Shown in pieces: positions 27,273-45,474 of a stretch of DNA of 64,000 nt. The translations under genes were made by a program, and so were the position numbers. The DNA is from Escherichia phage phiP4: sequence record PP993145.1. The stretch is one strand, 5' to 3'. The first letter of the stretch is position 1, and every line of letters starts with the position of its first letter. The notes beneath the pieces were generated by a model. It ran no database searches and was not told the origin of the DNA. It saw only the letters and a list, made by a program, of their open reading frames with translations.

Positions 27273-27287
27273 CTTATTTCCTTAATT

Positions 27288-27364: not shown

Positions 27365-27465
27365 ATGTAATCAGTTTATTAGTTGATACATATTATAGCC
27401 TAGTGAAAATCCTACTACTAATCCCACAAACCAACCAATATAATAATCTTTTAGTTTCACAGGTA

Positions 27466-27651
27466 TTATCCTCGTTCAATATCTAGGGAAATACCGCAGT
27501 TAGGATTAATACCTGTACCATTGCAATTTGCGCAAACCCAGATATTGCAAAAAGTATCTCCTGCTTCTGCATCAGAACTTTCACCAATTCCCCTACACTC
27601 AGGGCAGGCACATTCCTCTAGCTCTTGCTTGAGTTCTTGAAACTTGGACAT
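27466..27651 (-). CDS. Cys-rich zinc-ribbon-like small protein (61 aa)
   Basis: Paired CxxC motifs (CPEC ... CANC). Confidence 0.45.
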   Translation of the reverse strand: MSKFQELKQELEECACPECRGIGESSDAEAGDTFCNIWVCANCNGTGINPNCGISLDIERG

Positions 27652-27659
27652 ATAGTCTC

Positions 27660-27848
27660 CTAGTTAATTACTTTTGAGGCTTCTAAAGCATTGACGTAGT
27701 AAACATCTTCTACATTATACATATAGTCTACTACTTTGTCCATAGCATGGAGTTCAGATGTAGCCTTTACTAGTCTGTACCCTTGCTTAAACTCGTCCGA
27801 ATGTTCTCTATCTTGTGCAAATTTAACAGAAACTATGAATAATTCCAT
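27660..27848 (-). CDS. hypothetical protein (62 aa)
   Basis: ORF track. Confidence 0.4.
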   Translation of the reverse strand: MELFIVSVKFAQDREHSDEFKQGYRLVKATSELHAMDKVVDYMYNVEDVYYVNALEASKVIN

Positions 27849-27867
27849 TAGTTGTCCTTATTTAATT

Positions 27868-27945
27868 TGGTGGCTCCCCGAGGATTCGAACCTACGTACC
27901 TTCCGGTTATGAGCCGGGTGCTCATACCATATGAGCTTGAGAACC
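27868..27945 (-). tRNA. tRNA with anticodon CAT (third CAT tRNA; Met or Ile2), imperfect T-stem
   Basis: Hand fold: acceptor GGTTCTC/GGGAGCC, D-arm GCTC/GAGC, anticodon loop CTCATAA, CCA. Confidence 0.5.
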
Positions 27946-27951
27946 AAAATC

Positions 27952-28040
27952 TGGCGGAAGAAGTGGGAATCGAACCCACAAGGCTATATTTCAAGCCGAC
28001 AGATTAGCAATCTGCTGCAATACCGTTATGCTATTCTTCC
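27952..28040 (-). tRNA. tRNA-Ser (anticodon GCT)
   Basis: Hand fold: class II, perfect acceptor GGAAGAA/TTCTTCC, anticodon loop TTGCTAA, CCA. Confidence 0.65.
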
Positions 28041-28061
28041 GAATTTATAAGATATATTATA

Positions 28062-28580
28062 TTAGAAATTTAGCTTCATAGCAAGAAAATTTTTCAAGTT
28101 TTCGGTAGACATCTCATCCACATCTACAGGAGAAACAAAGCCGTTTAATTTTCTAGCAAATTTTTCACCTGCAGGGTCATTATCCCCGACAGCTACCAAT
28201 TTAAAAGGTAATAATTTCAGTTGCTTTAATAACGCTTTTCCTGGAGAAGAACCCAACATTGCCAGGGCTGGATAACCAGCGTTATGTAACGCAACTGCCT
28301 TAAATACAGATTCAGCAATCAATACTACTTTTTCATCTCCATTGAGAGTTTCTAGTCCCCATACACACTGGATAGTAGAATAAGTAAAATATTTAGCTTC
28401 AAATGGGCACTTACCATGACCTTTTGGAGCAGAAGGATTATACGTCTGATAGCCTCTCAACATCCCAGAGAAGTCATACAACGGGACTGTTAGCCATCCT
28501 TCCGGACTTAACCAGCAATGATATTTATCTGTATCAAATCCTCTAGATAAGAGGTGCTGTGTTAGCTCATCAACATTCAT
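28062..28580 (-). CDS. hypothetical protein (track ORF 28062..28631; start moved to ATG at 28580)
   Basis: Promoter -10 at 28611..28616 lies inside the track ORF; ATG at 28580 has a GAGAGG RBS. Confidence 0.5.
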   Translation of the reverse strand: MNVDELTQHLLSRGFDTDKYHCWLSPEGWLTVPLYDFSGMLRGYQTYNPSAPKGHGKCPFEAKYFTYSTIQCVWGLETLNGDEKVVLIAESVFKAVALHNAGYPALAMLGSSPGKALLKQLKLLPFKLVAVGDNDPAGEKFARKLNGFVSPVDVDEMSTENLKNFLAMKLNF

Positions 28581-28610
28581 ATTTGGTTCCTCTCTCAAAT
28601 TTATAGATAT

Positions 28611-28639
28611 ATTATACAGAGAATTTAGCATTCAAGCAA
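28611..28639 (-). promoter_or_regulatory. sigma70-type early promoter (TTGCTT-N17-TATAAT)
   Basis: Hexamers and spacer read directly. Confidence 0.6.
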
Positions 28640-28755
28640 TCAAATTTTTTAACTTTTTAGAGGAAAATCATATGGCACTTAAGGGTAGCAGATAAGTGGT
28701 GAGGACCAAAATTTGTGACCCCACTAAAAATCCGGGGGTAATTTTTAAAGACCCC

Positions 28756-28784
28756 TTGACATTTTCTCGGGGGTAGTGTAAAGT
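28756..28784 (+). promoter_or_regulatory. promoter-like element (TTGACA-N17-TAAAGT) for the + strand island
   Basis: Perfect -35 TTGACA, 17-nt spacer, weaker -10. Confidence 0.4.
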
Positions 28785-28846
28785 ATACGTTATGGATGAG
28801 TGATCAAAGAGACACACATTTTCTATATACTAGGAGGTGTCAAAAA

Positions 28847-29833
28847 ATGACAGAAGAAGTAGCTAAGAGTCCTGAGACCGTCGCTAGCGTTGCAGCAGAA
28901 CTGCACCGTCACGAGGAATCGGATAAGAAAAAGTGGGAGAAGGTCAGAGCCTACGAAGAGAAACATCGCGAACACGACGATGAAGAAGATGACGATGATG
29001 AACATTGTCATAAATATGGAAAACATAAAATGCAAGAACCAGTAAACGTATTCACTAGTGGCTTCCCTGGCCTACTGGGTGGTTACCCAGCAAACGCAGG
29101 TGCTTTCGGTGGTGAAGGTATGGGACTATTCGGAGCTATCCTAATCGGTGCTCTATTAACAGGCGGATTCGGTGGTTTCGGTGGATTCGGTGGACGTGGT
29201 GTAGTTGGTGATGGTACCGCAGTTGATGCAGTACTTCAGAACCAAGATACCGCTAGTATTCTAGCAGCTATTAACACTACTCGTACAGAAGCTAACCAGG
29301 GTACTGGAGCTGTTTTAAGCGCAGTTAACAATGGTTTTAGCCAGACATCCCAAAACCAGAGCCGTGATACTCAGTCTGTACTAACTACGATCTATGGTAC
29401 AGGTGCTAATCTGTCTAATCAGATCTGCCAGGAAACTCGCAACGTTATTCAGGGTCAGTTCGATCTTTCTCGCCAGATTGATCAATCTTTCGCAGCTAAC
29501 CAGATAGCTCGTGCACAAGATAAGTTTGATTCTGCACAGATCGCTTTCCAGCAGACTTTACAAACTAATAACCAGTTTGCCGCTGTTCAGGCTCAGATGT
29601 GTGCTAACCAGAACTCTCTGGAACGTCAGATCGCTGAATGTTGCTGTGAACTTCAGACTGCGATCGCTGGTGTAACTACTGCGCGTATCCAGGATGAGTT
29701 AGACGCATGTCGCCTACGTGAAGCAATCGCTGCTGGTAGCGGTGCTAACGGTCAGGTAATTAATCAAATCGCTTTAAGTCTTGGTGCTATCACTCAGACT
29801 CTGGCTGGTCTGCAGGCTAAACTGCCGGCTTAA
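28847..29833 (+). CDS. low-complexity protein: acidic N-terminus, Gly-Phe repeat hydrophobic segment, Gln/Asn-rich body, Cys cluster (track ORF 28796..29833)
   Basis: AGGAGG RBS before ATG at 28847; GGFGGFGGFGG and ECCCE motifs read directly. Confidence 0.5.
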   Translation: MTEEVAKSPETVASVAAELHRHEESDKKKWEKVRAYEEKHREHDDEEDDDDEHCHKYGKHKMQEPVNVFTSGFPGLLGGYPANAGAFGGEGMGLFGAILIGALLTGGFGGFGGFGGRGVVGDGTAVDAVLQNQDTASILAAINTTRTEANQGTGAVLSAVNNGFSQTSQNQSRDTQSVLTTIYGTGANLSNQICQETRNVIQGQFDLSRQIDQSFAANQIARAQDKFDSAQIAFQQTLQTNNQFAAVQAQMCANQNSLERQIAECCCELQTAIAGVTTARIQDELDACRLREAIAAGSGANGQVINQIALSLGAITQTLAGLQAKLPA

Positions 29834-29854
29834 TATTAAGGGGAGGAGCCCATT

Positions 29855-30259
29855 ATGAGTAAATATGGTTTTGTAAATAACGGACTTAATCAAAGTATGG
29901 GCTCCCAGCAGCCCATGCCGGGTCTGGATAACCCCTACTTACAACAGTTGCAACAGCGTTTAGCAGAAGCGCAACAGATGCAGCAACAACTCCAGCAAAA
30001 CCCTGGAAGTGTGAGTCCTATGCAAATGATGCAGCAAATGAGCGGGCAGTCGCAAATGCCTCAACAAATGCAGCAACAGGTGCCGCAGCAGCAAACCCAA
30101 CAACCGCAGGTTTCTGCGGAAGGACAGGCAGTACTAGCCCTTTTCGAAGACTTCGCAAAGACAGAGGATGGGAAACAGCTTGTATCACTTATGGGTAAGT
30201 TTAATAGCTTCTGCCAAAGCCAAGTTGCAAAAGCTCAAAATGGTGGTAATAACTCCTAA
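29855..30259 (+). CDS. Gln/Met-rich low-complexity protein (134 aa)
   Basis: GGAGG RBS; polyQ-like composition. Confidence 0.5.
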   Translation: MSKYGFVNNGLNQSMGSQQPMPGLDNPYLQQLQQRLAEAQQMQQQLQQNPGSVSPMQMMQQMSGQSQMPQQMQQQVPQQQTQQPQVSAEGQAVLALFEDFAKTEDGKQLVSLMGKFNSFCQSQVAKAQNGGNNS

Positions 30260-30268
30260 GGAGGAATT

Positions 30269-30463
30269 ATGTGTTGCAGAAAATCTGTTTCGTGCTGCCC
30301 AATGCCTGTAACACGTTGTTGCTCTCCAGCAATGTTTACGCAAATACCGGCGTTCAATCCGTTTGCCTTTAAACCTATTCTTATCCTGCCCCCTAGAGTA
30401 GATTTTCAGTCAAGATTGGCCTCCCGTATGGGTGGTTGCTGTACACCGAGAGTGTGGTTCTAA
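30269..30463 (+). CDS. Cys-rich small protein (64 aa)
   Basis: AGGAGG RBS upstream; multiple CC pairs. Confidence 0.45.
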   Translation: MCCRKSVSCCPMPVTRCCSPAMFTQIPAFNPFAFKPILILPPRVDFQSRLASRMGGCCTPRVWF

Positions 30464-30477
30464 ACCAAAAAACAAAA

Positions 30478-30510
30478 GCCCCTGCCGAAAGGTAAGGGGC
30501 TTTTTCTTTT
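30478..30510 (+). terminator. rho-independent terminator (GCCCCT ... AGGGGC + T-run)
   Basis: GC stem followed by TTTTTCTTTT. Confidence 0.6.
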
Positions 30511-30518
30511 GCCTTAAA

Positions 30519-30554
30519 TACAGAAAAGCCCGCGCTCTCGGAGGAAACGCGGGC
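30519..30554 (-). terminator. rho-independent terminator for the minus-strand SPFH gene (GCCCGCG ... CGCGGGC + U-run)
   Basis: GC stem followed on minus strand by TTTTCTG. Confidence 0.6.
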
Positions 30555-30579
30555 TTGGTTCGAAGATTACGTGTAACTA

Positions 30580-31527
30580 TTACTTGTTACGCATATCCAT
30601 GATCATTTGACCATCGTAGCCAGTACCTACCACAGTCTGAGGCACACCACCTTGATACTTCTGAGCACGAATCATTTCAACTTCCAGTTGCTTCCAGCGA
30701 ATCATCTCAGGAGTAATGGTACGTTGCAATGCGGCGTTAGCTTCAGCTTCTTTTTTAGCTGCGTACAGTTTAGCATCTGCGTCACGTTCGTTAGCAATAG
30801 CCTGGTTATTACGGGCTTCACGGTCTGCTTCTGCCTGTTTAACTTTTTGCTGTGCTTCTTGTTCAACACGAGCCAACTCAGCTTTTGCAGCATTAACTTG
30901 CTCTTCACGAACTTTGGTATTCTGTACCTGTTCCATGATTACTGGTGGCAGAGTAATATCCTGAAGGAATACCTGCTTAACTGTGTAACCATATGGGCGT
31001 GCATACTCTTCAACTTCTTGTTGAATTGCAGTTTGCAATTGAGCCTGAATTTTAGCATCAAACAAATCTTGTGCTTTAGGTACAGACTTACCAAACTCAC
31101 GAATAGTAGACAGTAATTTTTCAGTTACATATTTGTCTAACGCTTGATCCTGAGTACCCGCATTAATACGGTTAATCGGTGCCTTAGAACCATCAAACTG
31201 CAACATAACAGTCAGGTCAACAGTGGATTTAAACTTATCCTGGCTAGGAACCTGAAGTTTATCTAATTTTACAGCAATATCTTTTGTACTAAAAGTATCG
31301 AAAGATGCAAATGGGTTTACAAGATGGAAACCCGGTAATACTGGGTTAGGATCTACTTTACCCAGAAATGTTTGGGTTTTAACCGTACCATCAGAAACAA
31401 TAGTATATGAATTAAAGGCTAGAATCAAGCCTGCTAAACCAACTACAGCACCAATACCCCAACGTTTAATAGTACGAATTACTTTCTGCTCAGAAGTCAG
31501 TTCTTTCATATTTTTAGTATTAAACAT
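30580..31527 (-). CDS. SPFH/band-7 (stomatin/prohibitin/HflK-C-like) membrane protein (315 aa)
   Basis: N-terminal TM segment, SPFH-like core, C-terminal Ala/Glu/Gln-rich coiled coil. Confidence 0.65.
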   Translation of the reverse strand: MFNTKNMKELTSEQKVIRTIKRWGIGAVVGLAGLILAFNSYTIVSDGTVKTQTFLGKVDPNPVLPGFHLVNPFASFDTFSTKDIAVKLDKLQVPSQDKFKSTVDLTVMLQFDGSKAPINRINAGTQDQALDKYVTEKLLSTIREFGKSVPKAQDLFDAKIQAQLQTAIQQEVEEYARPYGYTVKQVFLQDITLPPVIMEQVQNTKVREEQVNAAKAELARVEQEAQQKVKQAEADREARNNQAIANERDADAKLYAAKKEAEANAALQRTITPEMIRWKQLEVEMIRAQKYQGGVPQTVVGTGYDGQMIMDMRNK

Positions 31528-31561
31528 ATATTTCCTTTGTTTTAGTTACAGTTAATAAAAT

Positions 31562-31636
31562 TGGCCGAGGTGACAGGATTCGAACCTGCATAAAGGAATT
31601 TAGAAGACTCCTGCCTCTCCCTTAGACTACACCCCG
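31562..31636 (-). tRNA. tRNA-Arg (anticodon TCT)
   Basis: Hand fold: acceptor CGGGGTG/CACCTCG, anticodon loop CTTCTAA, CCA. Confidence 0.65.
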
Positions 31637-33075: not shown

Positions 33076-33143
33076 ATTTCGCTTCCTCTCATTAATTTAT
33101 GAAAGTATTATACAGAAATTTAAGTAGTTAAGCAAGTAAATTT

Positions 33144-33611
33144 TTAAGTTTTAGTGACAACAGGTTTATAGAATGTATGTCCCTTAATCTTAGTTGTTTT
33201 CTTAAATTTCTTTGTCCAGTAAGGTTTATCTTTACCACTATGGAAGTATAGTGCTCCATGTGTAGGATCTTGTGGTAAATCAACGTAGTATATCACTCTA
33301 GCTAAATTCTTAGCTGTTTGCCAAGCCTCATCAGTTTTATCAACTTTTGGTCTCTTAGATACCCAAGAGAACTGGTTAGACTGATATACTACTTTACAGT
33401 AGGAATCTGGGAATTTACCGGAGTTTACACGGTTTTTAGTAACATGTGCAATCGCCGTCATTCCCTTTATGCCCTCACCACGACTTTCGAAATAGATATT
33501 TTTAGCAATGCAATCTATTTCTTTTGCATCGTGCGATGCCTGACTACTAAAGCTGAAGGTAAGGGCAGCTACTAAAAGCAAAGCTGCCTTCATTCTTTTT
33601 ACTCCTGCCAA
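33144..33611 (-). CDS. secreted cell-wall hydrolase (SleB/CwlJ-like Hydrolase_2 domain) (155 aa)
   Basis: Signal peptide plus conserved block NIYFESRGEG ... AIAHVTKNR. Confidence 0.55.
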   Translation of the reverse strand: MAGVKRMKAALLLVAALTFSFSSQASHDAKEIDCIAKNIYFESRGEGIKGMTAIAHVTKNRVNSGKFPDSYCKVVYQSNQFSWVSKRPKVDKTDEAWQTAKNLARVIYYVDLPQDPTHGALYFHSGKDKPYWTKKFKKTTKIKGHTFYKPVVTKT

Positions 33612-33916
33612 TCATATTCAACACGATTGGGATTTTCTTTATACCCTAAGTCAAGCAAATCATTACGCATATTTTGCTTAGCTACTGGGTTCGAGGTTAC
33701 TAGTACCACTTTCTTTGGTCTCTGCCCAAATTCTAAGAGTAAACGAAGAATTTGATAACCTTCCATACCATCTACAGCCAAGTCATTATCCATATAAACG
33801 AAATGGCCTGTGGTATCAGTTTTATTCAGAAACTCTACAGCGGCTTCTGGGGTTCGAATGATAATGTCCATTCCGTGAAGATTACGCACATCATCAATCA
33901 AAATATGAAAAGTCAT
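33599..33916 (-). CDS. hypothetical protein (105 aa), possible receiver-like fold
   Basis: ORF track; weak resemblance only. Confidence 0.4.
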   Translation of the reverse strand: MTFHILIDDVRNLHGMDIIIRTPEAAVEFLNKTDTTGHFVYMDNDLAVDGMEGYQILRLLLEFGQRPKKVVLVTSNPVAKQNMRNDLLDLGYKENPNRVEYDWQE

Positions 33917-34358
33917 AATAGCCTCGTTTCATCAATTTAAAAATATATTATACAGATAACTTAGTAAATTAGCAAATACATTTTTAAATTGTGAAACTAG
34001 TAAACCGATAAACAGCCTAGAGGCGCCACAGGCCATATCTTATGAGCCATGTACCTTTGATCTAGGGTTTGAATCATCAACGAATACTTTGCATCTTTTA
34101 GCTTTAGAAGTTTAGAAGTTTGAGTTCTTTAAACTTTTCAGCTTTCATACTTAAATGTTGATCTTTGAAGTTGTGTCGGTAATATCAACGACGCTTTGTT
34201 TTTACGTGTCAGATTAAATGTCTGATGTAATAAACATAATCTCCAATAGATTATACTTTATAGTATGGTCAGCGGTCTTATTTAACCTCGTATTTCAACC
34301 GCTGCTGCGAGGTAAGATGCTTGGGCTTTCGTCTACCGATTTACTAGCTTTTAAATTA

Positions 34359-34997
34359 TTACTCTACTTCAATGAAGGTAGAGGCGTTAGACTCGGACAG
34401 AACAAAGTCAACATTTGTTGCAAAGTCCTGGTATTCCTCGTCATGCTGCTTAATCAGCTTCTCCAGTTCCAGCGGATCAATCAAGAATGGAGTATTCTTG
34501 AGTTCCAGCAGATTGAGCTGCATTTTAACTTCATCTTCGGAAGTTTTCTTATCGCGGGTAGCCATGCTATCCTGCAAACGCTCATATTTAGCATCAAACT
34601 GTGCTTTCTGCGTATTAAACTTAACCGTAGCGGCATGGAACTGCTTACGCATGTTAGCCAGCAGTTGAGCTTTAAGCTCCATAGAACGCTTAGCTTCAAT
34701 TGCTTCCGCAACAGTCATTTTACGAGAACCGATCTCAACGATTGTTTCTGCATTGCTCTTAATCAGAGCAGACTTGATACGATCACGCTGAGACATCATA
34801 TCCAGCAGAGATTGGAAATCAGTCTTAATACGAGTAGACAGGTCATCTACTTCGATTGCAGCTCCAACTACAACCTGGTTTTTATCCTTACCTTCACCAA
34901 CAGCAATCAGAAGCTGCTGTTCAGTAGCTTTACGGATTTTAGCTTCCAGAGATTTGATAGTTGCCAGAGCGCGAGTTTTAGAGATACGAGTAGTCAT
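34359..34997 (-). CDS. coiled-coil protein (212 aa)
   Basis: ORF track; the overlapping + strand ORF 34218..35030 is rejected. Confidence 0.5.
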   Translation of the reverse strand: MTTRISKTRALATIKSLEAKIRKATEQQLLIAVGEGKDKNQVVVGAAIEVDDLSTRIKTDFQSLLDMMSQRDRIKSALIKSNAETIVEIGSRKMTVAEAIEAKRSMELKAQLLANMRKQFHAATVKFNTQKAQFDAKYERLQDSMATRDKKTSEDEVKMQLNLLELKNTPFLIDPLELEKLIKQHDEEYQDFATNVDFVLSESNASTFIEVE

Positions 34998-35245: not shown

Positions 35246-35315
35246 ATTTGTTTTCCTTTTATTGTTTTCTCAAATTTATGAATATATTATACAGAATTTT
35301 GGAGCCGGAAGCAAA

Positions 35316-36017
35316 TCAAATTTTCATTTTTTCGATCATAGCTGCAACACAATAGCTCTCAACTAAGGCATCGAATGCTGGATCATGCTTAACTGGATAG
35401 ATTCCATAACGAATAGTGTCCATTTTCTCCATTTTAGCGGTTGCCCAGCTAATACCTTCAGCCTCTAGCTCTTTGTAACTATATCCAGCTTGCATCCAGA
35501 GATTACGAAGAGATCGAACATTGCCCAAATTCCAGAATTTCCACGGAACTACCTCTTCATTGGTTCCAGCATGGAAAGTGTTTGCAGAGTAGATAGTCAT
35601 ATCAAACTCTGGGCCATTGCCATAATACAAAGCATTATCGCCTAGAGCCAACTCCATAATATTTTGAGCCATAGAGTAGGCAGCATAGTTAGAGCCGAGT
35701 TTATTAGTACAATGATGTTTACCGTTTTGGAATGCAATCAGCTTTGGATTACGCTCGTTCATAGCTTGCATAATGTGGATAGCAGACGGGCTGTCTTTAG
35801 CTTGATCCATCCAGAATGCTAGAGTAGATGCTGTAACTTTAGCACCAGAGTTAAGCTGATCTTGTACATCCAAAGTAACAAATACTAGATCAGGGTCTTT
35901 ATCAATTCCATGCATAGCCACAAAAGCGAAAGAAGGCATTGCGATATGAGTAGTACCACAATCTCCTGGAGTTCCTAGAGATTCAATATCTAGCATACCA
36001 AATGGTTTTACTTTCAT
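35316..36017 (-). CDS. DEDDh-type 3-prime to 5-prime exonuclease-like protein (233 aa)
   Basis: Motif I LDIESLG, motif II GPEFD, motif III HDPAFDA resemble DnaQ-like Exo I/II/III. Confidence 0.45.
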   Translation of the reverse strand: MKVKPFGMLDIESLGTPGDCGTTHIAMPSFAFVAMHGIDKDPDLVFVTLDVQDQLNSGAKVTASTLAFWMDQAKDSPSAIHIMQAMNERNPKLIAFQNGKHHCTNKLGSNYAAYSMAQNIMELALGDNALYYGNGPEFDMTIYSANTFHAGTNEEVVPWKFWNLGNVRSLRNLWMQAGYSYKELEAEGISWATAKMEKMDTIRYGIYPVKHDPAFDALVESYCVAAMIEKMKI

Positions 36018-36045
36018 AACTTATCCTTTATTGTGTAGAAAACTA

Positions 36046-36282
36046 TTAAAGAGCTGTCTCTTTAATAGACTCCCACTTCTTGGGGTCTTTAAAACCAGGA
36101 AGCATATCCTCACTGACATCCCAGTTCTCTTCCATAGAGAAGTCGGGCCATTCATTCCAGCTACCTTCCAGCTCTTCATAACAGGTGTCCATTACCTCAT
36201 GACTAGAAAGTCGTGTATAATCCCTAGCTGACTTATGGGTGCTAGCACGGTTAAAATCATTCTTTGCCACAAAATTACGCAT
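36046..36282 (-). CDS. hypothetical acidic protein (78 aa)
   Basis: ORF track. Confidence 0.4.
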   Translation of the reverse strand: MRNFVAKNDFNRASTHKSARDYTRLSSHEVMDTCYEELEGSWNEWPDFSMEENWDVSEDMLPGFKDPKKWESIKETAL

Positions 36283-36288
36283 AGTTTC

Positions 36289-36313
36289 TCCAAATAAGAG
36301 GGGCTTTCGCCCC
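36289..36313 (-). terminator. hairpin GGGGC-TTTC-GCCCC with U-rich tail on minus strand
   Basis: Read directly; lies downstream of 36324..36539. Confidence 0.45.
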
Positions 36314-36323
36314 CTGATTTAAA

Positions 36324-36539
36324 TCACTTGCCCAGCAGTTTAAAGATATTTTCCATAATAGTTTGGGCAGATTTTTCACTCTTGTTGGTTTCAGCCAACT
36401 TTAAAGCGAGTTCTTCCTGCTGTTTCTGAATATCAGCTGCGATTTTTTGATCAGCCTCAATACGAGCTTGAAGCTCATCAGTGATAGTGGTAAAGGAAGC
36501 AACGATTTCAGTAACGGAACGTGGTTTCTTAGAGAACAT
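36324..36539 (-). CDS. hypothetical protein (71 aa)
   Basis: ORF track. Confidence 0.4.
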   Translation of the reverse strand: MFSKKPRSVTEIVASFTTITDELQARIEADQKIAADIQKQQEELALKLAETNKSEKSAQTIMENIFKLLGK

Positions 36540-36602
36540 AAAAATATCCTTGATTAGTTAGAGAATTAGTAGATTGTAGGGGCTTCTGCCCCTATTTATC
36601 TA

Positions 36603-37118
36603 TTACTTCGCTTTACGCTTGCTAGCTGGTTTAGCAGATTTACGAGCAGAATCACCCGTGAACTTAATGCCTACACCGTAACACAGAGCGCGAACGTTAT
36701 CTTTACTATACTCTACGCCAAAGATATTTGGCTTAACAGAACCAAACTGTCCACGAGCATCACGTAGTACGTCTGCCGTTGGTTTACGCTTCTGGTTAAC
36801 TGCTTTCTCATAGTCTTTCATAGCCATACCATTACGAGAGAACAATTCAGCCCCAGCGTTGAAGCTCAGGGAAACTGGGGCAGATTTGTGGCCGTAATTT
36901 TCTACATACATAACCATTTTGTAGGATTTACGGGTGGCATTTTTAGCTTTAGGCTTCTGACGAATCGGAGCCGGATTATTCAGTGCTTGTGCAGCCTGAG
37001 CATCGGTAGGATGCTTACGCAGGTGGCGTTCCAGACGAGCTTTGCGATTAGCTTCGGTCTGCGGGAAAGTTTTAACTGCCGGAGCTGCTTGAGTTTTTGC
37101 GTTTTTCTGTTTAGCCAT
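36603..37118 (-). CDS. Lys/Ala-rich basic protein, possible DNA-binding (171 aa)
   Basis: Strongly basic termini (AKQKNAKTQAAPAVK ... KPASKRKAK). Confidence 0.5.
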   Translation of the reverse strand: MAKQKNAKTQAAPAVKTFPQTEANRKARLERHLRKHPTDAQAAQALNNPAPIRQKPKAKNATRKSYKMVMYVENYGHKSAPVSLSFNAGAELFSRNGMAMKDYEKAVNQKRKPTADVLRDARGQFGSVKPNIFGVEYSKDNVRALCYGVGIKFTGDSARKSAKPASKRKAK

Positions 37119-37193
37119 TATTTGTTTTCCTTTTTGTTTATCAATTTATGAAGTATATTATACGAGAATTTGAAGCGTTTAGCAAATGAATTT

Positions 37194-37643
37194 TTAATTT
37201 ATTAACTGTAAGCTTCTTTTAATTTCAGACCTTACCTGCATCAAAAGAACTCCTAAAGTATTATCCCCGATGCCTCGGCAAACACCCCAATATGTATCTC
37301 CCCAGGTATTTCCTTCGATCAAAGTTGCATTTTTTGTTGCTAACAGTTTGTCTCTCAAATCAGGGATTGCAAACTTTAACCGTAAAAGCTCTAGCATTAC
37401 ATCATCTTTTACCTTATCCCAGTCAGAGCGCAGAGTTAATTTACGTCCTCTACGTTTGGCAACACCTGCATTTAGGGAGCGCAGTACATGAGCTACATCA
37501 TCTTTTTGGTCGGATTTCATAGCCTGAAAAGCGTGTTCTACAGTATCAGCATGCCATATTTCATTTAGATATTCGAAAGTAATTGGTGATAAATAAAAGT
37601 TTGATAAGAAACTATAAGCACCTTTAAATTCAGTAATCTTCAT
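37194..37643 (-). CDS. NADAR (YbiA-like, DUF1768) domain protein (149 aa)
   Basis: Motif FLSNFY ... EHAFQAMK typical of the NADAR family. Confidence 0.55.
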   Translation of the reverse strand: MKITEFKGAYSFLSNFYLSPITFEYLNEIWHADTVEHAFQAMKSDQKDDVAHVLRSLNAGVAKRRGRKLTLRSDWDKVKDDVMLELLRLKFAIPDLRDKLLATKNATLIEGNTWGDTYWGVCRGIGDNTLGVLLMQVRSEIKRSLQLIN

Positions 37644-37924
37644 TTTTTACGCCCCGCATCTTTAGCCTCTTCGGCTGTATAGATATACTGATAAGCCCCT
37701 TTGGAGTAGGCTGGAGCAGTACACATTTTCTTACGCTCAATCTCTTCTTGAGCTTTTCTTTCGCGTTCAGCTAATTCTTCGTCCAGATAAACTAAACGTT
37801 GTTCTGGAGGGGGTGGAAGACGTGTTTCTGGCTCACCAATATTAGCCTTTCTTATTTGACGAGGTGATTGTGCACGTTTTCTCAATGGTTTAAATCCTAA
37901 TGAATTTGAGTTATAAATCCGCAT
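37640..37924 (-). CDS. hypothetical protein (94 aa)
   Basis: ORF track. Confidence 0.45.
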   Translation of the reverse strand: MRIYNSNSLGFKPLRKRAQSPRQIRKANIGEPETRLPPPPEQRLVYLDEELAERERKAQEEIERKKMCTAPAYSKGAYQYIYTAEEAKDAGRKK

Positions 37925-38001
37925 AAAGCCCTCCTCACTTTCAATACGAATATTATACTAAATTAGAGGGCTTTAAGCAAGAGAATTTTTTAATTTATTT
38001 A

Positions 38002-38490
38002 TCACATCTCAGCCATTTCAGCTTCAGTAATAACTGTATTACATAAGGCATCTACAGCTTCATTACCACTAATACCAGAATGTCCTTTAACCTTAATAAA
38101 GGTAGGGTTAGTATTATGAAAGTTGATATACTGCTGTGTTAATTTAAATGCTTCCTGCCAAAGTTCTAGATTAAGAGGAACTTCACCATCTGCTTTCTTC
38201 CAGCCTTTCCTTTGCCAAGAAAACATCCAACTTTCCATGCCATTTTTGCAATAAGCAGAGTCAGTATAGATAGCAATTGGTCTATTATCTTTTTTAACAG
38301 ACCAACGTAGAGCTTCTACAATAGCTGTGAGTTCCATCTCATTATTTGTAGTTTTAGGACTATAACCAGATTTAGAGCCTAAACGATCGTCGTTATCATC
38401 ATAGACAATAAAACCCCAAGCACCTGGACCCGGGTTAGCCTTACAAGCACCATCTGTGTAAATGTGGAAAACCGACATTATACCTCCCAA
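38002..38490 (-). CDS. ribonuclease H (RNase HI-like, 162 aa)
   Basis: Catalytic signature IYTDGAC ... YTDS ... GHSG..GNEAVDAL. Confidence 0.7.
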   Translation of the reverse strand: MGGIMSVFHIYTDGACKANPGPGAWGFIVYDDNDDRLGSKSGYSPKTTNNEMELTAIVEALRWSVKKDNRPIAIYTDSAYCKNGMESWMFSWQRKGWKKADGEVPLNLELWQEAFKLTQQYINFHNTNPTFIKVKGHSGISGNEAVDALCNTVITEAEMAEM

Positions 38491-38759
38491 CTAATTTTAA
38501 GACCCATGTCTACAAAGGCGGCTTCTCGGTAGTATTGTGAGAGATGATACCCCTTATCCGATAAGGTTTTTAGTACCGATTTAGCTGCTCCTGGCATTTC
38601 TCTAGGATTATATAGCCACCTAGCGTAAGGATTATCTCGAATAATTACTTCTGTATTTCCAGACTTAGCAGCTTCTACAATCTTTTCTTCTATAAACTTT
38701 AGAAGTGCGGGGACTTCTGTTAATCCTGCAAGTTCTTGAGCTTCTTTGGCTGAAATCAT
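38478..38759 (-). CDS. hypothetical protein (93 aa)
   Basis: ORF track. Confidence 0.45.
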   Translation of the reverse strand: MISAKEAQELAGLTEVPALLKFIEEKIVEAAKSGNTEVIIRDNPYARWLYNPREMPGAAKSVLKTLSDKGYHLSQYYREAAFVDMGLKISWEV

Positions 38760-38775
38760 GGCTTTTCACCTTCTG

Positions 38776-38958
38776 CTACACTTCTAGTTTTTGATGGAAT
38801 GGGGGGTTAGGTTTTATAGCCTCTAATTCTCTATCTAAGAATTCCTCTATTGCTCTATCTACAAAGTAGTCATAGGGTAAATGATAATATTCTGATAGAG
38901 TAAGAAGTTTGTGTTCTTGCCCTTCTGTTAAATAAACTTTCTTTCTAAAGAGTCCCAT
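38776..38958 (-). CDS. hypothetical protein (60 aa)
   Basis: ORF track. Confidence 0.4.
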   Translation of the reverse strand: MGLFRKKVYLTEGQEHKLLTLSEYYHLPYDYFVDRAIEEFLDRELEAIKPNPPFHQKLEV

Positions 38959-39052
38959 ATGTGTATCTCCAATTTATAAAATATATTATATTTAAATTTC
39001 ACTAAATAAGCAAATGAAATTTAAATATAATAGCCCCGAAGGGCTACTTAAG

Positions 39053-39892
39053 TTAAGAGGACATTTTAGCTTTAAGAGCTGGATGTGGGTCATATCCTTC
39101 AAGGTGGAAGGACCAAGCCGCAGTATTATTCTCTAATAAATCATAGAGATCTACAAATTCTGGCATTACTAGAGTTGGCAAAGGACGTGGTTTACGTTTC
39201 ATTTGCTCCTCTACTTGCTCTATATGATCACTGTAAATATGTGTATCTCCACCACTAAAGATGAGATAACGAGGTTTTAATCCAGTCAATTTTGCTAGGA
39301 TATGTGTTAATAAAGCATAACTAGCAATATTGAAAGGTAGGCCTAGAAAACAGTCTACAGAACGTTGTGTCCATTTAAGATCTAAGTATCCATCATTACT
39401 TACGTAACACTGGAAACCATAGTGACATGGTGGTAATGCCATCTTATCTAGTTCGGCAACGTTCCATGCAGATACTAGGTGTCTACGACCATGTGGATTA
39501 TTCTTGAGACCCTCAATGAGTTCTAGGATCTGATCTCGTCCACCAAAGTTGCGCCATTGTTTACCATATACTGGTCCTAGATTACCGTTGTCATAGCCCA
39601 TACTTATAGCTTGGTCTTCATAATTTGGAGTCCAGATAGTCCACTGTCCTTCGTCACGCCCAAATGTGAATACTCGCAGATCATGGAGATTTGTAGATCC
39701 AGATAAAAACCACAGGAGTTCTCCAACTACTGATTTCCAAGCTAGACGTTTAGTGGTTACGGCGGGGAATCCCTCACGTAGGTCGAACTTAGCATAGGAA
39801 TCAAAAATTGAAACTGTGCCTGTTCCTGTACGATCGTTACGTGGTTCACCCAGTAAAATTACATCTGTTAGAATTTTTAAATATTGTTGCAT
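39053..39892 (-). CDS. thyA: thymidylate synthase (279 aa)
   Basis: Conserved ThyA blocks including active-site region PPCH and RR...W motifs. Confidence 0.8.
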   Translation of the reverse strand: MQQYLKILTDVILLGEPRNDRTGTGTVSIFDSYAKFDLREGFPAVTTKRLAWKSVVGELLWFLSGSTNLHDLRVFTFGRDEGQWTIWTPNYEDQAISMGYDNGNLGPVYGKQWRNFGGRDQILELIEGLKNNPHGRRHLVSAWNVAELDKMALPPCHYGFQCYVSNDGYLDLKWTQRSVDCFLGLPFNIASYALLTHILAKLTGLKPRYLIFSGGDTHIYSDHIEQVEEQMKRKPRPLPTLVMPEFVDLYDLLENNTAAWSFHLEGYDPHPALKAKMSS

Positions 39893-40425
39893 TAATAAGT
39901 AACCAATTCCTGTACAAATCGCAGGCTGTTATCACTGTTTGCGCCAGTTGCGTAAACTAAACGAGTAGATTCATAGTTGTAATCTAGAATCGTATTATCT
40001 AGATGTACATCTGCCTCTAGTTTTTGATCACTAAAGATTGTGGATACAAAAGCACTTTCAATATGTCCATGAATATACATTTCGTACAGTAATGTTGCAC
40101 CACCTAAAACCACTGTCTGTTGATCTTTCAGAAATGTAGGTAAAGCATCCCCAATCTTAGAAATTGGAGTGTAAATATCATGTGTAATATCGTCTGGTAG
40201 TGGACGATCAGCACGAATAAATAGGTCAGAAGCTCCAATCATACGTTCCCTAACGGCGTATGGAAGAGCTAAATAAGTACCCGCACCAATGATGATGTTA
40301 TCTGGATTCAACACGTCCAGTTGAGAATAGAAAGCATCTAGTTCTTCTTTGAAGGAACCCCATGGAAGTTTACCGCGGAGGCCGAACTCCCCATTCGGCC
40401 CAACTGCATACATTGCTGTAATCAT
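39892..40425 (-). CDS. dihydrofolate reductase (177 aa)
   Basis: N-terminal DHFR signature (GPNGEFG..GKLPW); adjacent to thymidylate synthase. Confidence 0.75.
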   Translation of the reverse strand: MITAMYAVGPNGEFGLRGKLPWGSFKEELDAFYSQLDVLNPDNIIIGAGTYLALPYAVRERMIGASDLFIRADRPLPDDITHDIYTPISKIGDALPTFLKDQQTVVLGGATLLYEMYIHGHIESAFVSTIFSDQKLEADVHLDNTILDYNYESTRLVYATGANSDNSLRFVQELVTY

Positions 40426-41567
40426 AAGAAATCTCCAAATTCATTACCCAGATCTTTCAGAGTATCAGTAGAGGTCTCAGTTACCTGACCTACACGGTAA
40501 GCTGCACCAATCTGGATTTCTTGCGGAGCAGGCTGTAGAGAAGTAGTATCCAACCAGTTCATGATCCACGGAATAGGGTTTTTGGTGATTACTGGTAAGT
40601 GACTAGGCCATTCTACACCGATGTGCATAAATGCATTACGCCCCACAAAGTACAGATATTCTTCTAGAAGTTCTGCATTCAAGCCAATCAGACTACGACC
40701 TTTGAAAATGAAATGACCCCATTCAATTTCAGTTTTCAGAGTTTTCAGGAGCTGTGCTGGTGCTTTAGCCACTGCTTCATCTACCAGATCTTTGTCAAAC
40801 TGCTGGAACATAATCTGGATGATTGCTTTAGACATCTGAGTGTGTAGAGCTTCATCTTTAGCAATTAATTGTAGGTTTTTAGCAATACCTTGCAGAATAT
40901 CGTTCTCTGCTAATGCAAAGGTACATGCAAAGGATGCATAAAACTGCATTGCTTCCAGACCATAGATCGCAAAGTAAGCGTCTAATAGTTTAGCCTGAGT
41001 TTCACGTTTAACTTCAGGGAACTCAGTTTCTGGATATGTATTGTCGCCACGATGATCGCGTACTGCGATGAAATACTGACCTAACTGGTACAGTTCATCG
41101 AATAGTTCAACAGAATCAGCGATGCGTGCGAATGCTTCTTGGTTTTTGGTTACAGAATCAATAAATTCTGCTGGATCAGTTAGCACATTACGAATAATAT
41201 TGCTATAAGCACGACTATGCAGATCTTCGAAGTAGCTCCACTGCTTGAGCATACCTTCCAATTCTGGACGACTTACAAGCGGCATAATAGCTGCTTCAGG
41301 AGCACGACTGATAAAGGAATCTGTTTGAGTTTGCCATGCTAAGTTCAGGAGTGTAATTTCCTGAATTTCCCGTGGGAGATTAGGCCATTGTTTCTTATCT
41401 GCTTCCAGACTGATTTCAGTTTCAGTCCAAAATTGAGAGCGTTGCAGAAGTGCCAGACGTTCTAGTTCTGGATGTGCTACACGTACATAATCTGCGATAC
41501 CGAGAGAATCGCCCAGGAAAAGATCAGCGTTAGTATGGTCCCAATTCAGGTTTAGTAAAGTAGTCAT
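40422..41567 (-). CDS. nrdB: ribonucleotide reductase class Ia small subunit (381 aa)
   Basis: Ferritin-like di-iron protein downstream of the large subunit; C-terminal FGDFL-type tail. Confidence 0.8.
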   Translation of the reverse strand: MTTLLNLNWDHTNADLFLGDSLGIADYVRVAHPELERLALLQRSQFWTETEISLEADKKQWPNLPREIQEITLLNLAWQTQTDSFISRAPEAAIMPLVSRPELEGMLKQWSYFEDLHSRAYSNIIRNVLTDPAEFIDSVTKNQEAFARIADSVELFDELYQLGQYFIAVRDHRGDNTYPETEFPEVKRETQAKLLDAYFAIYGLEAMQFYASFACTFALAENDILQGIAKNLQLIAKDEALHTQMSKAIIQIMFQQFDKDLVDEAVAKAPAQLLKTLKTEIEWGHFIFKGRSLIGLNAELLEEYLYFVGRNAFMHIGVEWPSHLPVITKNPIPWIMNWLDTTSLQPAPQEIQIGAAYRVGQVTETSTDTLKDLGNEFGDFL

Positions 41568-41673: not shown

Positions 41674-44003
41674 TTAAATAGTACAACCACCGGATGCACA
41701 ACCTGCTGCTTCTTCTCCAGCACCTCCACCATTTGCAGTATTGAAGTTAGCATAGTAGAAAGTTTTCCACCCATACTTAACAGCAGTCATGAAATCACGA
41801 ACTACTACTGGGCCAGGAATGATTTCATTCTCAAACTTGGTGTAGTCATAGTACATATTCGTACTGATAGACTGGCTGAAGAATTTCTGCATAGTTGCTA
41901 CCCACTTGATCCACTCGATACGATCTACATCATAAGCCAGTTTATAGCTCATTAACGTTTCCCAATCGGTTGCACCTGGAGCAATTGCAATTACTTTATT
42001 CACTGCACTACCCTTGATAGATACAATCTTACGAGGCGGTTCAATAGAGTTAGTAACACCTAACAGAACAGAAGAACTTTCTCCTGGCATCTGAGCAGTC
42101 AGAACAGAGTTACGCATACCATATTTCAGAATATCTGCACGCAGAGACTCCCAATCCATTTCTAGACCTACGGATACCAGTTCATCAACAGTTTTCTTGT
42201 AAGTGTCGATTACCAGAATTCCTTTAGATGGTTTAGTACGATCAAACCACTCACATGCACCCTGTTCTTTAGCTAGGCGTACAGAGGCTTTATGCAGAAA
42301 GTAAGACAGTTTTTCAGCCTCACGGTGAATCCAGTTACGGGCTTCAATACCTTCATAAGCCAGACCTTCTGCTGCCATTGCACCTGCTGCGTTCATCAGG
42401 CCAATACCAACATTACGACGTTTCTTAGCCGTATATTCCATAGTTGGGAACGGATAATCCTGAATTTCAATAATTGTATCAACGAATTTCAGGAGGATGT
42501 AGCAAGTTTTTTCCCACTCAGCCAGAGATTCCATGCGTCCAAGTACAACACCACCTAAGTTACACAGAGATACTTCACCAATATCCTCCGGCTTCATTTG
42601 ATCAAGCTGCTCTTTTGTCTTATACAGCTCTGTGATATGATGGAACGGGCGTGTAGGCTGAGTAATTTCAACACAAAGGTTTGTCATACGGATCGGATCA
42701 AGGAAGTTACCGTGACGGTTAGATTCCCCGATGTGATGAGCGTACATACGTCCTGTTTCCATTCGGATACGTAGCCAAGTATCTAGGATTTCTTTTGCAG
42801 AGACTTTAGGAGCTGCAGGAACTGTTTTTCCTTCGTGGTCGATCTTTGTAAGAGATGCCACACGTTTCTCCGCTGCCACGTAGATTTCTTCAAATTTAGC
42901 CTCGTCATCACTATAAAACGCTTCATGAACTTCTGGAGCATAGAAGTATGACATTAGCGTAATATCTTCGTTTTTAAGATAACGTTTTAACAAAAGATTG
43001 TTAAAGCTCAGAGAATAATCCATCTTATCGATTTTATTCTCATCTGTAGCACGTTGTTGCTTAACCTGCATCAATTGAATGATTTCAGGGTCGAAGTACG
43101 GATAAGACACTGTGGCAGAACCACCACGAGTTTGCTGAGTATTGGCCTTTACTGAGCGGTCAATGTGTCGATAATATGGCAGTTTTCCGGAATGCGGGAA
43201 TGCCCCATTTCGCACCGGATCAGCAATTGATCGGCTTTCAAGATGATACCCGATTCCCGCTCTGGCTGCGACCATTTTGAAGACGATGTGCTCGGCGGTG
43301 TCGATTGAATCCAACGTGTCAGTGGAATCCACGAGGCAGCAACTAGCAAATCCACGGTCACTAGAGCGCAGACCAACCAGTGGCGGCGTAGGAACGTTGA
43401 TTTTGTGGAGTGACATTGCATTGTAGAGGTCGATTGCATCTAGAATTGTCCAGTTAGGTTGAGATAACATCGCCATTGCCATACCCATGTAGGCAAACTG
43501 CGGGGTTTCATAAATTTCACCAGTGGCTATGTTACGACGGGAATACTTATCAAAGAACTGTTTCAGCCCACCACTAGTAAAAAGACGGTCACGATCGTGG
43601 TCTATAACCTGATTCAGAGCTTCAAATTGCTCATCGGTAATCCATGCACTCATGTCTTCCCATGCACCTACGCTAACCATATGGTCATGGAAGAAGCGTA
43701 GAGAGGGTGGTTCGAAAGAATCATAAAGGCGTTTACGCATTTGCGCAAGACGTAATTCCTTTGCTGGCACATCGTATGCTGGATTATCTTTGATAAGACT
43801 TTCAGCAGCTTTAATTAATGCATCCATCAGAGTGTCGGAATCTACAACCCCTTTAGGCAGAGTTTTTTGAGCAGCCATAGTAATGGCTGACCAACTTACA
43901 TCAACTGTTTTGCAACCATACTCTGCCCAACCATTGAGTTTTTCAGGAGCAAAGTCTTCTACAGTACCGTCACGTTTAATTACTTTTTCAATGCGATGGC
44001 TCA
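41674..44003 (-). CDS. nrdA: ribonucleotide reductase class Ia large subunit (track ORF 41674..44109; start moved to ATG at 44003)
   Basis: ATP-cone start (MSHRIEKVIKRDGT) preceded by AAAGGAA RBS; catalytic core; C-terminal Cys pair. Confidence 0.8.
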
Positions 44004-44146
44004 TTTGGCTTTCCTTTTTATAGTTATCAGGATTTAAGGAATATTCTACTTTATTATCGGTCATTAGGCAAATAAAATTTTCTGATAGAAAAGGCCCGAG
44101 TATTTTCATACCCAGGCCCTGTATATTACCAGTCTAGCTTTTTAGC

Positions 44147-44368
44147 TTATTCAATTACTTTAGCTCTAGCTACTTCTTTTAATAGAATATCTATGGAGGT
44201 GCTCAGCTCGTTATAGTTGAATGGTTTATTTGGATTTGAGGTTACAATTTTCCACGCTAGGGTTGTCTTAGGACTTTCTTCCCCTTCCTTACGTGTAATC
44301 ATATTAGCAGCACTCAGTGAAGTACGATGTATTTTAGTTTTACGGCTCAGATGAACGACGTTTCCCAT
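44147..44368 (-). CDS. hypothetical protein (track ORF 44147..44437 trimmed to an internal ATG)
   Basis: Trim removes overlap with the PhoH gene. Confidence 0.4.
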   Translation of the reverse strand: MGNVVHLSRKTKIHRTSLSAANMITRKEGEESPKTTLAWKIVTSNPNKPFNYNELSTSIDILLKEVARAKVIE

Positions 44369-44369
44369 A

Positions 44370-45131
44370 TTACACCTTCCCCATGTCTTTAAAAATATCA
44401 TAGAATGCTTTAGACTCAACAGAACGAACGTTATCAATCAATTCGATCATTGAGAATGGGGCATTTTCGTATTTTTCATAGACTTCCATAAGGAGTGCTA
44501 GACCTGAGTCACCTTTAATGTCTTTCTGAGCTATATCTCCGCAGATAATTAAACGGCAGTCTTGTCCTACACGAGTTAGGAGACAAATCATTGCCTCAAC
44601 GGAAATATTCTGAGCTTCATCGACAATTACATAGGAGTTGTTGAAAGTTCTGCCACGAGCATGTTCGATAGCCAAAAATTTAATTTTCTGACGTTCGACA
44701 TATCCTTTATATGCATGATCGCCGATGGCCCATTTCATACCATCAGCTATTGGCTCCAACCAAGGCTCTAGCTTTTCCGCTAGATCACCAGGAAGCATAC
44801 CAAGAGACTTACCTAGAGGTTCATTAGGACGTACGAGAATCACTTGCTCAATATCTGAGTGAATGTCTACGAGTTCCTGAGCTGCAAGAACGGACGGAAT
44901 AAAGGTTTTACCAGTACCTGGCTCGCCGATACCCACAGTCACTGTGTTGTTCTTGATCATATTGATATATGATTTTTGCTCGCGGTTTTTACCTACTAGG
45001 GATTTAGCAACTGGGTTAGCGTAATCATTAGAAAAATCAGCCTGAATTACGTTGTTCTCATATTTGTTGCCACGCTTTCTTGAACCATTGCGGTTCTCTC
45101 TTTTTTGACGTGCTTTTCCCATAAATAACAC
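44370..45131 (-). CDS. phoH: PhoH-like ATPase (253 aa)
   Basis: Walker A GEPGTGKTF and Walker B-like ICGD, characteristic PhoH layout. Confidence 0.75.
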   Translation of the reverse strand: MLFMGKARQKRENRNGSRKRGNKYENNVIQADFSNDYANPVAKSLVGKNREQKSYINMIKNNTVTVGIGEPGTGKTFIPSVLAAQELVDIHSDIEQVILVRPNEPLGKSLGMLPGDLAEKLEPWLEPIADGMKWAIGDHAYKGYVERQKIKFLAIEHARGRTFNNSYVIVDEAQNISVEAMICLLTRVGQDCRLIICGDIAQKDIKGDSGLALLMEVYEKYENAPFSMIELIDNVRSVESKAFYDIFKDMGKV

Positions 45132-45416
45132 TCCTATAGTGTACTTCGCTAACAGAGGATCAACAAAAAGATCTTGTTTATCAACTTACAAATATATTAT
45201 ACCAATATATACAGTAAAAAGCAACTACAATTTTAAATAAGCCTATGATATTGCATTTAAATAAAAAATTTGCTTGCTTTTAACGTGAGATGTGTGATAC
45301 TAGATAATCATTTTATATCGCGTGCACGAGTGCGTGATTATACAATTTTTAATAGAGATTGGCAAATAAAATTTTTTGACTCAGATCATGTTACAGAACT
45401 TTATAGTAAAATATTG

Positions 45417-45445
45417 TTGACATCCGCCCTCGAATGAGTTATAAT
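45417..45445 (+). promoter_or_regulatory. sigma70 promoter TTGACA-N17-TATAAT upstream of nrdD
   Basis: Perfect consensus hexamers with 17-nt spacer. Confidence 0.65.
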
Positions 45446-45474
45446 AGTAGTCTTAGTTAGAGAAGGAGAGTATA

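Follow-up and report, generated by a model that had tools for sequence, protein, structure and literature searches.

A predicted anti-DarTG1 NADAR gene inserted into a conserved row of T5-like early genes in Escherichia phage phiP4

Results

In a 64,000-nucleotide stretch of DNA from Escherichia phage phiP4 (sequence record PP993145.1; hereafter the window), positions 35316-38490 hold a cluster of genes that an original prediction, made from the letters alone, had described as an RNase H, a NADAR-domain protein, a Lys/Ala-rich basic protein and a DEDDh exonuclease-like protein, with an implied functional link among them. The cluster is very probably best explained as a co-linear row of T5-like early genes that act independently of one another, and not as a dedicated system, with the NADAR gene as an accessory counter-defence gene. 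There is no evidence that the genes form one system; promoters and terminator-like hairpins separate them, accessory genes come and go independently, and a near-identical NADAR protein works alone. The stretch is the early-gene region of a T5-like phage (Tequintavirus) and is ordinary and well conserved; over 4 kb its DNA is 96.7% identical to that of EC148, SUT_E1520, T5_ev212 and other Escherichia phages, and all of the 444 phage records that match it are T5-like Demerecviridae.

All four named genes are real and lie on the minus strand, and three more conserved genes that had gone unnamed stand with them, encoding proteins of 94 (phrog_4593), 71 (phrog_2380) and 78 (phrog_4586) amino acids (aa). 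In the list of open reading frames (ORFs), seven minus-strand genes fall within 35316-38490 and each matches a phage protein family (PHROG); in the order of transcription they are RNase H, the 94-aa gene, NADAR, the 171-aa DUF7022 gene (the basic protein), the 71-aa gene, the 78-aa gene and the 233-aa exonuclease. The RNase H, NADAR and DEDDh assignments hold in profile searches, with Pfam scores above the curated cut-offs and PHROG matches, so that the latter two, which failure in such searches would have undone, stand. The cluster had been placed just upstream of the nucleotide-metabolism genes; it is transcriptionally downstream of them instead, because thymidylate synthase, dihydrofolate reductase (DHFR) and nrdB lie at 39053-41567 and all the genes run from high to low coordinates. 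The order thyA, RNase H, 94-aa gene, DUF7022, exonuclease, Hydrolase_2 is kept in metagenomic relatives at only 50-56% protein identity, and the synteny of thyA, RNase H, 94-aa gene, DUF7022, 78-aa gene and exonuclease is preserved in T5-like IMG/VR contigs. An Rfam scan returned no RNA family inside the interval 35316-38490, and a literature search on T5.087-T5.090 or DUF7022 returned no papers. When the PADLOC models were run against all seven proteins, six were unmatched and NADAR alone matched weakly, to the candidate model PDC-M42C (E 6.5e-7).

The NADAR gene (37194-37643, minus strand) is an accessory insertion relative to T5. Positions 37196-37685 (490 bp) stand in place of 46 bp of T5 DNA, a clean replacement, and 95 phage records have a copy at no less than 95% identity, whereas 529 have DUF7022; of the phages with the other genes, roughly four fifths lack NADAR. 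In Epseptimavirus UTK0009 a NADAR of 59.7% identity occupies a different slot, between RNase H and a 94-aa-like gene. This distribution, together with the ability of the NADAR protein to work alone, speaks against the functional link that had been implied among the cluster genes.

The protein carries the NADAR domain PF08719 over residues 9-142 (E 6.9e-22, 78.9 bits against a cut-off of 35.1), and it differs at a single residue (148/149 identical) from bas33_0070 of HildyBeyeler, the Escherichia phage numbered Bas33 among the BASEL phages. The NADAR proteins of Bas32 and Bas33 are identical and have been named AdfN(Bas32) (PMC11825919, Nat Commun 2025). In uninfected E. coli, AdfN(Bas32) neutralises the DarT1 toxin. 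On DarTG1 hosts it allows RB69, T5 and Bas25 to form plaques again, T5 itself being DarTG1-sensitive, and it gives no help to T5 against DarTG2, a thymidine modifier; when expressed ectopically it acts alone, without other phage factors (PMC11825919). In light of this near-identity, the phiP4 protein is predicted to be a DNA ADP-ribosylglycohydrolase of the Bas32/Bas33 AdfN type and an anti-DarTG1 counter-defence enzyme, the activity having been demonstrated for its one-residue variant. The earlier suggestion that the NADAR protein could reverse ADP-ribosylation agrees with the DarT1 neutralisation by that variant, and such reversal by this NADAR type is already published and not new. Residues were mapped by motif and HMMER alignment, not by structure, and in this mapping the catalytic Glu and Lys are E36 and K43 in TVEHAFQAMK (the S/T-E-x-x-F-Q-x-x-K motif; E43/K50 in PnNADAR and E88/K95 in E. 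coli C7), the last-strand acidic residue is E110 in LIEGN (PnNADAR E125, C7 D171), and the ADP-ribose contacts K63, R67, W75, D116 and W119 are present; this catalytic and ADP-ribose-binding set has been defined previously (PMC11543638).

Signals that divide the row were found on both sides of the DUF7022 gene. Upstream of it lies a sigma-70-like early promoter (37157-37185, minus strand; TTGCTA-17-TATAAT, 10 of 12 consensus matches), a homologue of T5 promoter P-H 207 that is predicted from consensus and homology only. Positions 37143-37196 align to the annotated T5 promoter region 45985-46059, and also to T5 promoter P16-17 at 91%; in T5, several annotated early promoters separate the genes T5.087-T5.091. 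Directly after the DUF7022 stop codon is a GC-rich terminator-like hairpin (36576-36595; 8-bp stem, 5 GC pairs), which marks the left edge region of the 71-aa ORF insertion, and an AT-rich hairpin with an 11-bp stem (36043-36068, minus strand) overlaps the 78-aa ORF stop codon and is followed by a T-run and then by the exonuclease ribosome-binding site. Records of phage BB1 have annotated terminators at the places equivalent to both hairpins.

Repeated 55-70-bp segments (33081-33150, 33921-33990, 35268-35324 and 37143-37196) are 74-91% identical to several annotated T5 early-promoter regions. These promoter-like repeats stand at intergenic sites of accessory gene gain and loss, and may therefore be recombination substrates for gene shuffling.

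The first gene of the row encodes an RNase HI-type ribonuclease H (38002-38478, minus strand), a homologue of T5.091, and T5 and its relatives annotate the gene as rnh. It matches PF00075 (E 5.4e-32, 111.3 bits against a cut-off of 25.8) and phrog_531 (E 1.8e-69), and it scores 133.5 bits (E 4.3e-39) with the RNase HI equivalog NF001236, which is under the strict 160-bit equivalog cut-off. The start is most likely the ATG at 38478 (158 aa) and not the TTG at 38490 of the mechanical ORF; the ATG is favoured because of an upstream GGAGG, an overlap with the preceding ORF stop and the public annotation of T5-like phages. A BLASTP alignment with E. coli RNase HI shows 37% identity; in the same comparison D9, E49, D73, H133 and D143 align with the E. 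coli catalytic residues D10, E48, D70, H124 and D134, all of them conserved.

At the other end of the row is a 233-aa protein (35316-36017, minus strand; T5.087 homologue) that we assign to the DEDDh 3'-5' exonucleases of the T4 DexA family. It matches PF16473, the Rv2179c-like family (E 2.4e-8, 34.3 bits against a cut-off of 27), and phrog_255 (E 2e-52), a PHROG that also holds T4 DexA (E 3.6e-91). The motifs Exo I (D10/E12 in LDIES), Exo II (D139 in EFDMT) and Exo III (H211/D216 in KHDPAFD, H-x4-D) are all in place, and the DEDDh residues are invariant across 23 homologues down to 36% identity. The protein shows the RNase H-like exonuclease fold and T4 DexA is its best structural match, with RNA-specific relatives scoring nearly as high as DexA. 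When the PDB was searched by sequence only, with the exonuclease or its profile, no nuclease came up and the sole matches were spurious ones to armadillo-repeat proteins and PCNA; these searches missed the DexA relationship, for which a structure-based search was needed, and the direct profile comparison with DexA gave a probability of 81% over a partial alignment (residues 8-173). A role like that of DexA, beside the nucleotide-synthesis genes and with DNA as the predicted substrate, would be the most economical interpretation, and the database label 'metallopeptidase' is wrong.

The small gene next to the exonuclease appears to be part of the same enzyme. It encodes a 78-aa acidic protein (36046-36282, minus strand; T5.088 homologue, phrog_4586 E 9.6e-40) with the N-terminal motif MRNFVAKNDFNRA..HKS, which is DUF7230-like, and a match to PF23876 (E 2.8e-4) that is below the cut-off. 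The protein also matches positions 75-147 of phrog_255, ahead of the part matched by the exonuclease, and aligns over its full length with the first ~75 residues of five proteins of 324-334 aa (P0078, P0083, P0084, P0086 and P0087) at up to 62% identity; the C-terminal parts of these proteins are the exonuclease, so that both parts are in one chain. In the window the two are in different frames, and a programmed frameshift that would join them was considered and rejected, since a TAA interrupts the exonuclease frame two codons ahead of the ATG, and they are therefore two separate genes. The 78-aa ORF and the exonuclease are best seen, from this alignment, as two pieces of what would be one enzyme, and the pieces may still act together. 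Kinship of the N-terminus (MRNF...) to T7 gp1.1 (PF08200) was also considered and rejected (hhalign probability 3.6%, 5 residues aligned).

The basic protein is a DUF7022 protein of 171 aa (36603-37118, minus strand; PF22887 E 1.2e-75, above the curated cut-off, and phrog_4516), the homologue of T5.089, and its description as Lys/Ala-rich is accurate: it has 24 Lys and 26 Ala, a K+R count of 37 and an isoelectric point of 10.5. All 529 phage records with DUF7022 are T5-like, and it is a core gene of these phages, with annotated homologues in T5-like phages of Escherichia, Salmonella, Yersinia, Klebsiella and Pectobacterium. In our alignment (A1) 28 columns are invariant, H32, H36 and C146 among them. 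It shows a conserved basic N-terminus that forms a helical hairpin (TEANRKARLERHLRKHPxDxQA ... R.KP), a middle part that varies and is deleted from many of the relatives, and a conserved C-terminal block, FGSVKPNIFGVEYS..NVRALCYGVGIKFTG. The AlphaFold2 model has a predicted local distance difference test score (pLDDT) of 65.5 and is confident only in helices 19-35 and 40-47. No sequence or fold match was found in the PDB, and comparison with HU/IHF, H-NS, Fis, Lrp and Dps gave no similarity of either kind. Kinship to ribosomal protein S20, considered from the basic helical N-terminus, was rejected (hhalign probability 0.09%).

A hidden Markov model of DUF7022 was searched against 1.84 billion representatives and found about 10 full-length relatives, together with about 110 small proteins that have the N-terminal module only; none of these relatives carries another known domain, save P0108, which is a low-complexity artefact. 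The module (MAK...KNRxxRLxRHLKxHPNDxQA...RKKP) is stand-alone or differently extended in more than 100 protein clusters (P0106-P0215) and occurs in phages of widely differing genome sizes, often beside genes for DNA ligase, clamp loader, helicase or polymerase. In IMG/VR it is present at 63 loci that fall into 24 sequence groups (L012-L074). Among the six non-T5 loci whose neighbours were scanned with Pfam, four lie among replication genes, namely NAD-dependent DNA ligase (L023), clamp loaders (L045 and L039), a PIF1-type helicase with PolB (L039) and PolA (L027), and the other two (L014 and L057) adjoin PKD-domain or head-fibre genes. In the relatives with a fused exonuclease, the DUF7022 stop overlaps the exonuclease start (TAATG). 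We weakly infer that DUF7022 is probably a basic nucleic-acid-binding accessory protein of replication or DNA metabolism; the data give no support for the specific nucleoid-associated function that had been proposed for it, or for a 'virion structural protein' label.

The two remaining genes of the row are small. The 94-aa basic protein (37640-37924, minus strand; T5.090 homologue, phrog_4593 E 1.8e-54) is 91% identical to T5.090, with the differences clustered at the C-terminal end beside the NADAR insertion, and a 94-aa ORF at the syntenic place in a divergent T5-like metagenomic contig has 56% identity to it. The stop of its gene and the start codon of NADAR overlap (ATGA), so that the genes share 4 nt. 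The protein had no match in Pfam, NCBIfam or PADLOC, and a match to NADase_NGA (E 0.076, 13 bits against a cut-off of 30.5) was treated as noise. In clustering at 90% identity it shares a cluster with 149-aa NADAR proteins, which is probably a clustering artefact. The 71-aa protein (36324-36539, minus strand; phrog_2380 E 1.3e-28) is a predicted coiled coil and accessory relative to T5, since positions 36314-36577 have no T5 counterpart; the ORF is present in 372 phage records and is flanked by two hairpins.

Several observations concern the surroundings of the row. Positions 38482-38976 (minus strand), directly beyond RNase H, are an insertion relative to T5 with a 93-aa ORF (phrog_5321) and a 60-aa ORF; at the corresponding position in metagenomic relatives, the ORF that immediately precedes RNase H has 91 aa and carries PF26862 (Phage_T4_Y10B). 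On the other side, 34359-34997 (minus strand) encodes a 212-aa coiled-coil protein (T5.085 homologue, phrog_1491) that is labelled 'tail fiber protein' despite its early-region location, and phage vB_EcoS_MM-1 has unrelated plus-strand ORFs at this locus instead, which makes it another variable slot. A 105-aa protein that is a lone 'cyclic-phosphate processing receiver' (cREC) domain (33599-33916, minus strand; PF20274 cREC_REC E 3.8e-15, T5.084 homologue) is called no more than hypothetical in T5-like records; it is not obvious what a lone cREC would do in a lytic phage, and the cREC gene also adjoins the 94-aa gene in IMG/VR locus L022. The 155-aa Hydrolase_2 protein (33144-33611, minus strand; PF07486 E 2.4e-25), a SleB-like cell-wall hydrolase with a hydrophobic N-terminus, keeps its place immediately downstream of this block, next to the exonuclease, in divergent T5-like contigs, and its database labels differ between 'endolysin' and 'spore cortex-lytic enzyme'.

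Further away, 22 tRNA genes, all on the minus strand, form a block at 19549-31636, as expected of T5-like phages. The GC skew flips sign at ~44000-46000, from negative before ~44 kb to positive after ~46 kb, which fits a change of coding strand where two divergent transcription blocks meet. Some short records under the name 'Listeria phage LM 4-14-1 / 4-11-1', and partial proteins that are attributed to Enterococcus faecalis, are 99-100% identical to these T5-like genes, and are probably database contamination or mislabelling.

Discussion

The backbone of the row consists of the genes for RNase H, the 94-aa protein and DUF7022, followed by those for the 78-aa protein and the DexA-type exonuclease; it is a set of early genes common to divergent Demerecviridae and placed directly downstream of nrdA/B, DHFR and thymidylate synthase. 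By its family membership, RNase H would remove RNA primers and RNA:DNA hybrids in phage DNA replication. The fold and family of the DEDDh exonuclease suggest that it would act like T4 DexA in host-DNA scavenging and homing resection and degrade DNA from the 3' end, and the 78-aa neighbour would be its detached N-terminal domain. Small accessory genes have been inserted into this backbone, NADAR among them, whose product would hydrolyse ADP-ribose from the guanine bases that host DarT1 modifies on phage DNA, and so allow replication in DarTG1 hosts.

Some points weigh against this interpretation. The roles given here are predicted from sequence, family and fold. With DUF7022 and the 94-aa, 71-aa and 78-aa proteins uncharacterised, a functional complex could lie behind the conserved gene order and the translational coupling. 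Whether the exonuclease acts on DNA or RNA is not readable from its sequence, and the matching Pfam family is named after an exoribonuclease (Rv2179c). The NADAR protein carries the Glu of the YbiA subfamily (E110) and its best solved sequence relative is YbiA, which itself fails to rescue DarT1 toxicity in vivo (PMC11125620); the anti-DarT1 assignment is made because of the near-identity to AdfN(Bas32) and not because of subfamily features.

A single module for the repair of ADP-ribosylated phage DNA, in which NADAR strips the adduct and the damaged strand passes to the exonuclease, RNase H and basic protein for processing, might be read from the adjacency of the genes on one strand, their shared early expression and the overlap of the NADAR start with the 94-aa ORF stop. 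It is highly improbable, and is already largely refuted by the absence of NADAR from T5 and from most of the phages with the other genes and by its other slot in UTK0009; moreover, AdfN(Bas32) works from a plasmid on its own, whether it is set against the toxin or supplied in trans to unrelated phages. We would give as little weight to the NADAR protein being a YbiA-type N-glycosidase that acts on riboflavin-pathway intermediates or another metabolite and not on DNA. Beyond the resemblance to YbiA already described, the protein scores just under the cut-off of TIGR02464, the riboflavin biosynthesis intermediates N-glycosidase model of YbiA/COG3236 (66.5 against 73.7 bits). Every NADAR tested to date, YbiA too, hydrolyses guanine-ADP-ribose in vitro, nothing that we gathered suggests that a lytic phage needs riboflavin damage control, and the experiment on the one-residue variant, which neutralises DarT1 and restores phage growth on DarTG1, outweighs the subfamily resemblance.

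For the backbone proteins, the alternatives concern function within the row. That the DEDDh enzyme is an exoribonuclease, which would remove primers or RNA:DNA hybrids with RNase H, turn over nanoRNA, or degrade an RNA or oligonucleotide signal, has the most in its favour of these and is still unlikely; the high structural scores of RNA-specific relatives and the name of the Pfam family speak for it, and the best structural match and shared PHROG with DexA speak for DNA. Doubtful, too, is a reading in which DUF7022, the 78-aa domain and the DexA-like exonuclease form one nucleic-acid-processing unit, with DUF7022 as a new kind of DNA-binding accessory subunit whose basic N-terminal hairpin (KNRxxRLxRHLKxHPNDxQA) is a widespread phage replication module; it is drawn from the fusion of the last two in relatives, where the first is translationally coupled to the fusion. 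We find it harder still to credit that DUF7022 is a virion protein, such as a basic internal protein packaged with DNA. It is very basic, and the label 'virion structural protein' is attached to it in UniRef and in the records of STG2, ESCO30 and JLBYU, but no experiment was found behind that label. Other records call the gene 'swarming motility protein', which is plainly an error of transfer. The gene is located in the early region, after an annotated early promoter, and in other phages the N-terminal module of its product stands among replication genes.

Taken together, the row of independently acting early genes is built from parts of which everything of substance is known already, namely T5 rnh, AdfN(Bas32) and the DexA family; a small new residue is the split or fused architecture of the exonuclease and the unexplained DUF7022 module. 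The value of the analysis lies mainly in annotation, since it corrects database labels for NADAR, DUF7022 and the exonuclease. The NADAR protein is best named AdfN, an anti-DarTG1 factor, and its labels 'swarming motility protein' and 'GTP cyclohydrolase II' are wrong. The presence of the gene predicts that this phage, unlike T5, would escape DarTG1 hosts, which is useful where T5-like phages are picked for use in therapy or biocontrol. A large phage family has DUF7022 and the 94-aa protein in its core, and DUF7022 and the 78-aa protein are tied to a DexA-type exonuclease by gene order or fusion; with the 71-aa protein, they are reasonable if modest targets for further work.

Comparison with known systems

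The backbone is collinear with that of T5 (NC_005859) at 89-95% DNA identity, with one-to-one counterparts in T5.087 (exonuclease), T5.088 (78 aa), T5.089 (DUF7022), T5.090 (94/92 aa) and T5.091 (rnh), and T5 differs in being without the three insertions at 36314-36577, 37196-37685 and 38482-38976. T4 DexA (PDB 8KEL) is more distant, with a structure-based identity to the exonuclease of only about 15%. It discriminates 5-hydroxymethylcytosine, a base that T5-like DNA is not known to carry (for Bas32 the DNA is stated to be unmodified), and it has no counterpart of the extra N-terminal domain of the relatives' enzyme, which is the separate 78-aa ORF here; T4 dexA.1 belongs to a different PHROG.

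E. coli YbiA (PDB 2B3W) is the closest solved structure to the NADAR protein by sequence (E 3.5e-15) and has the same minimal NADAR core without an N-terminal extension and the same Glu signature, but it is linked to the hydrolysis of riboflavin intermediates and, unlike AdfN(Bas32), does not protect from DarT1 in vivo. T4 AdfN (gp30.3) and the DarG1-type NADAR antitoxins (BC4488) belong to the same fold family and perform the same hydrolysis of guanine-ADP-ribose in DNA, and all counter DarT1. The last-strand catalytic residue is Glu (E110) in phiP4, whereas it is His in phage NADARs of the gp30.3 type and Asp in DarT1-linked NADARs, and AdfN of the Bas32 type neutralises DarT1 in uninfected cells whereas T4 AdfN does not. 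The Bas32 type was acquired independently, because the published tree groups it with archaeal NADARs (PMC11825919). With AdfN of Bas32 and Bas33 the phiP4 gene shares its genomic slot, between the 94-aa gene and DUF7022, and all of its active-site residues; the single difference is A9 here in place of T9 in Bas33, for which no difference in function would be expected.

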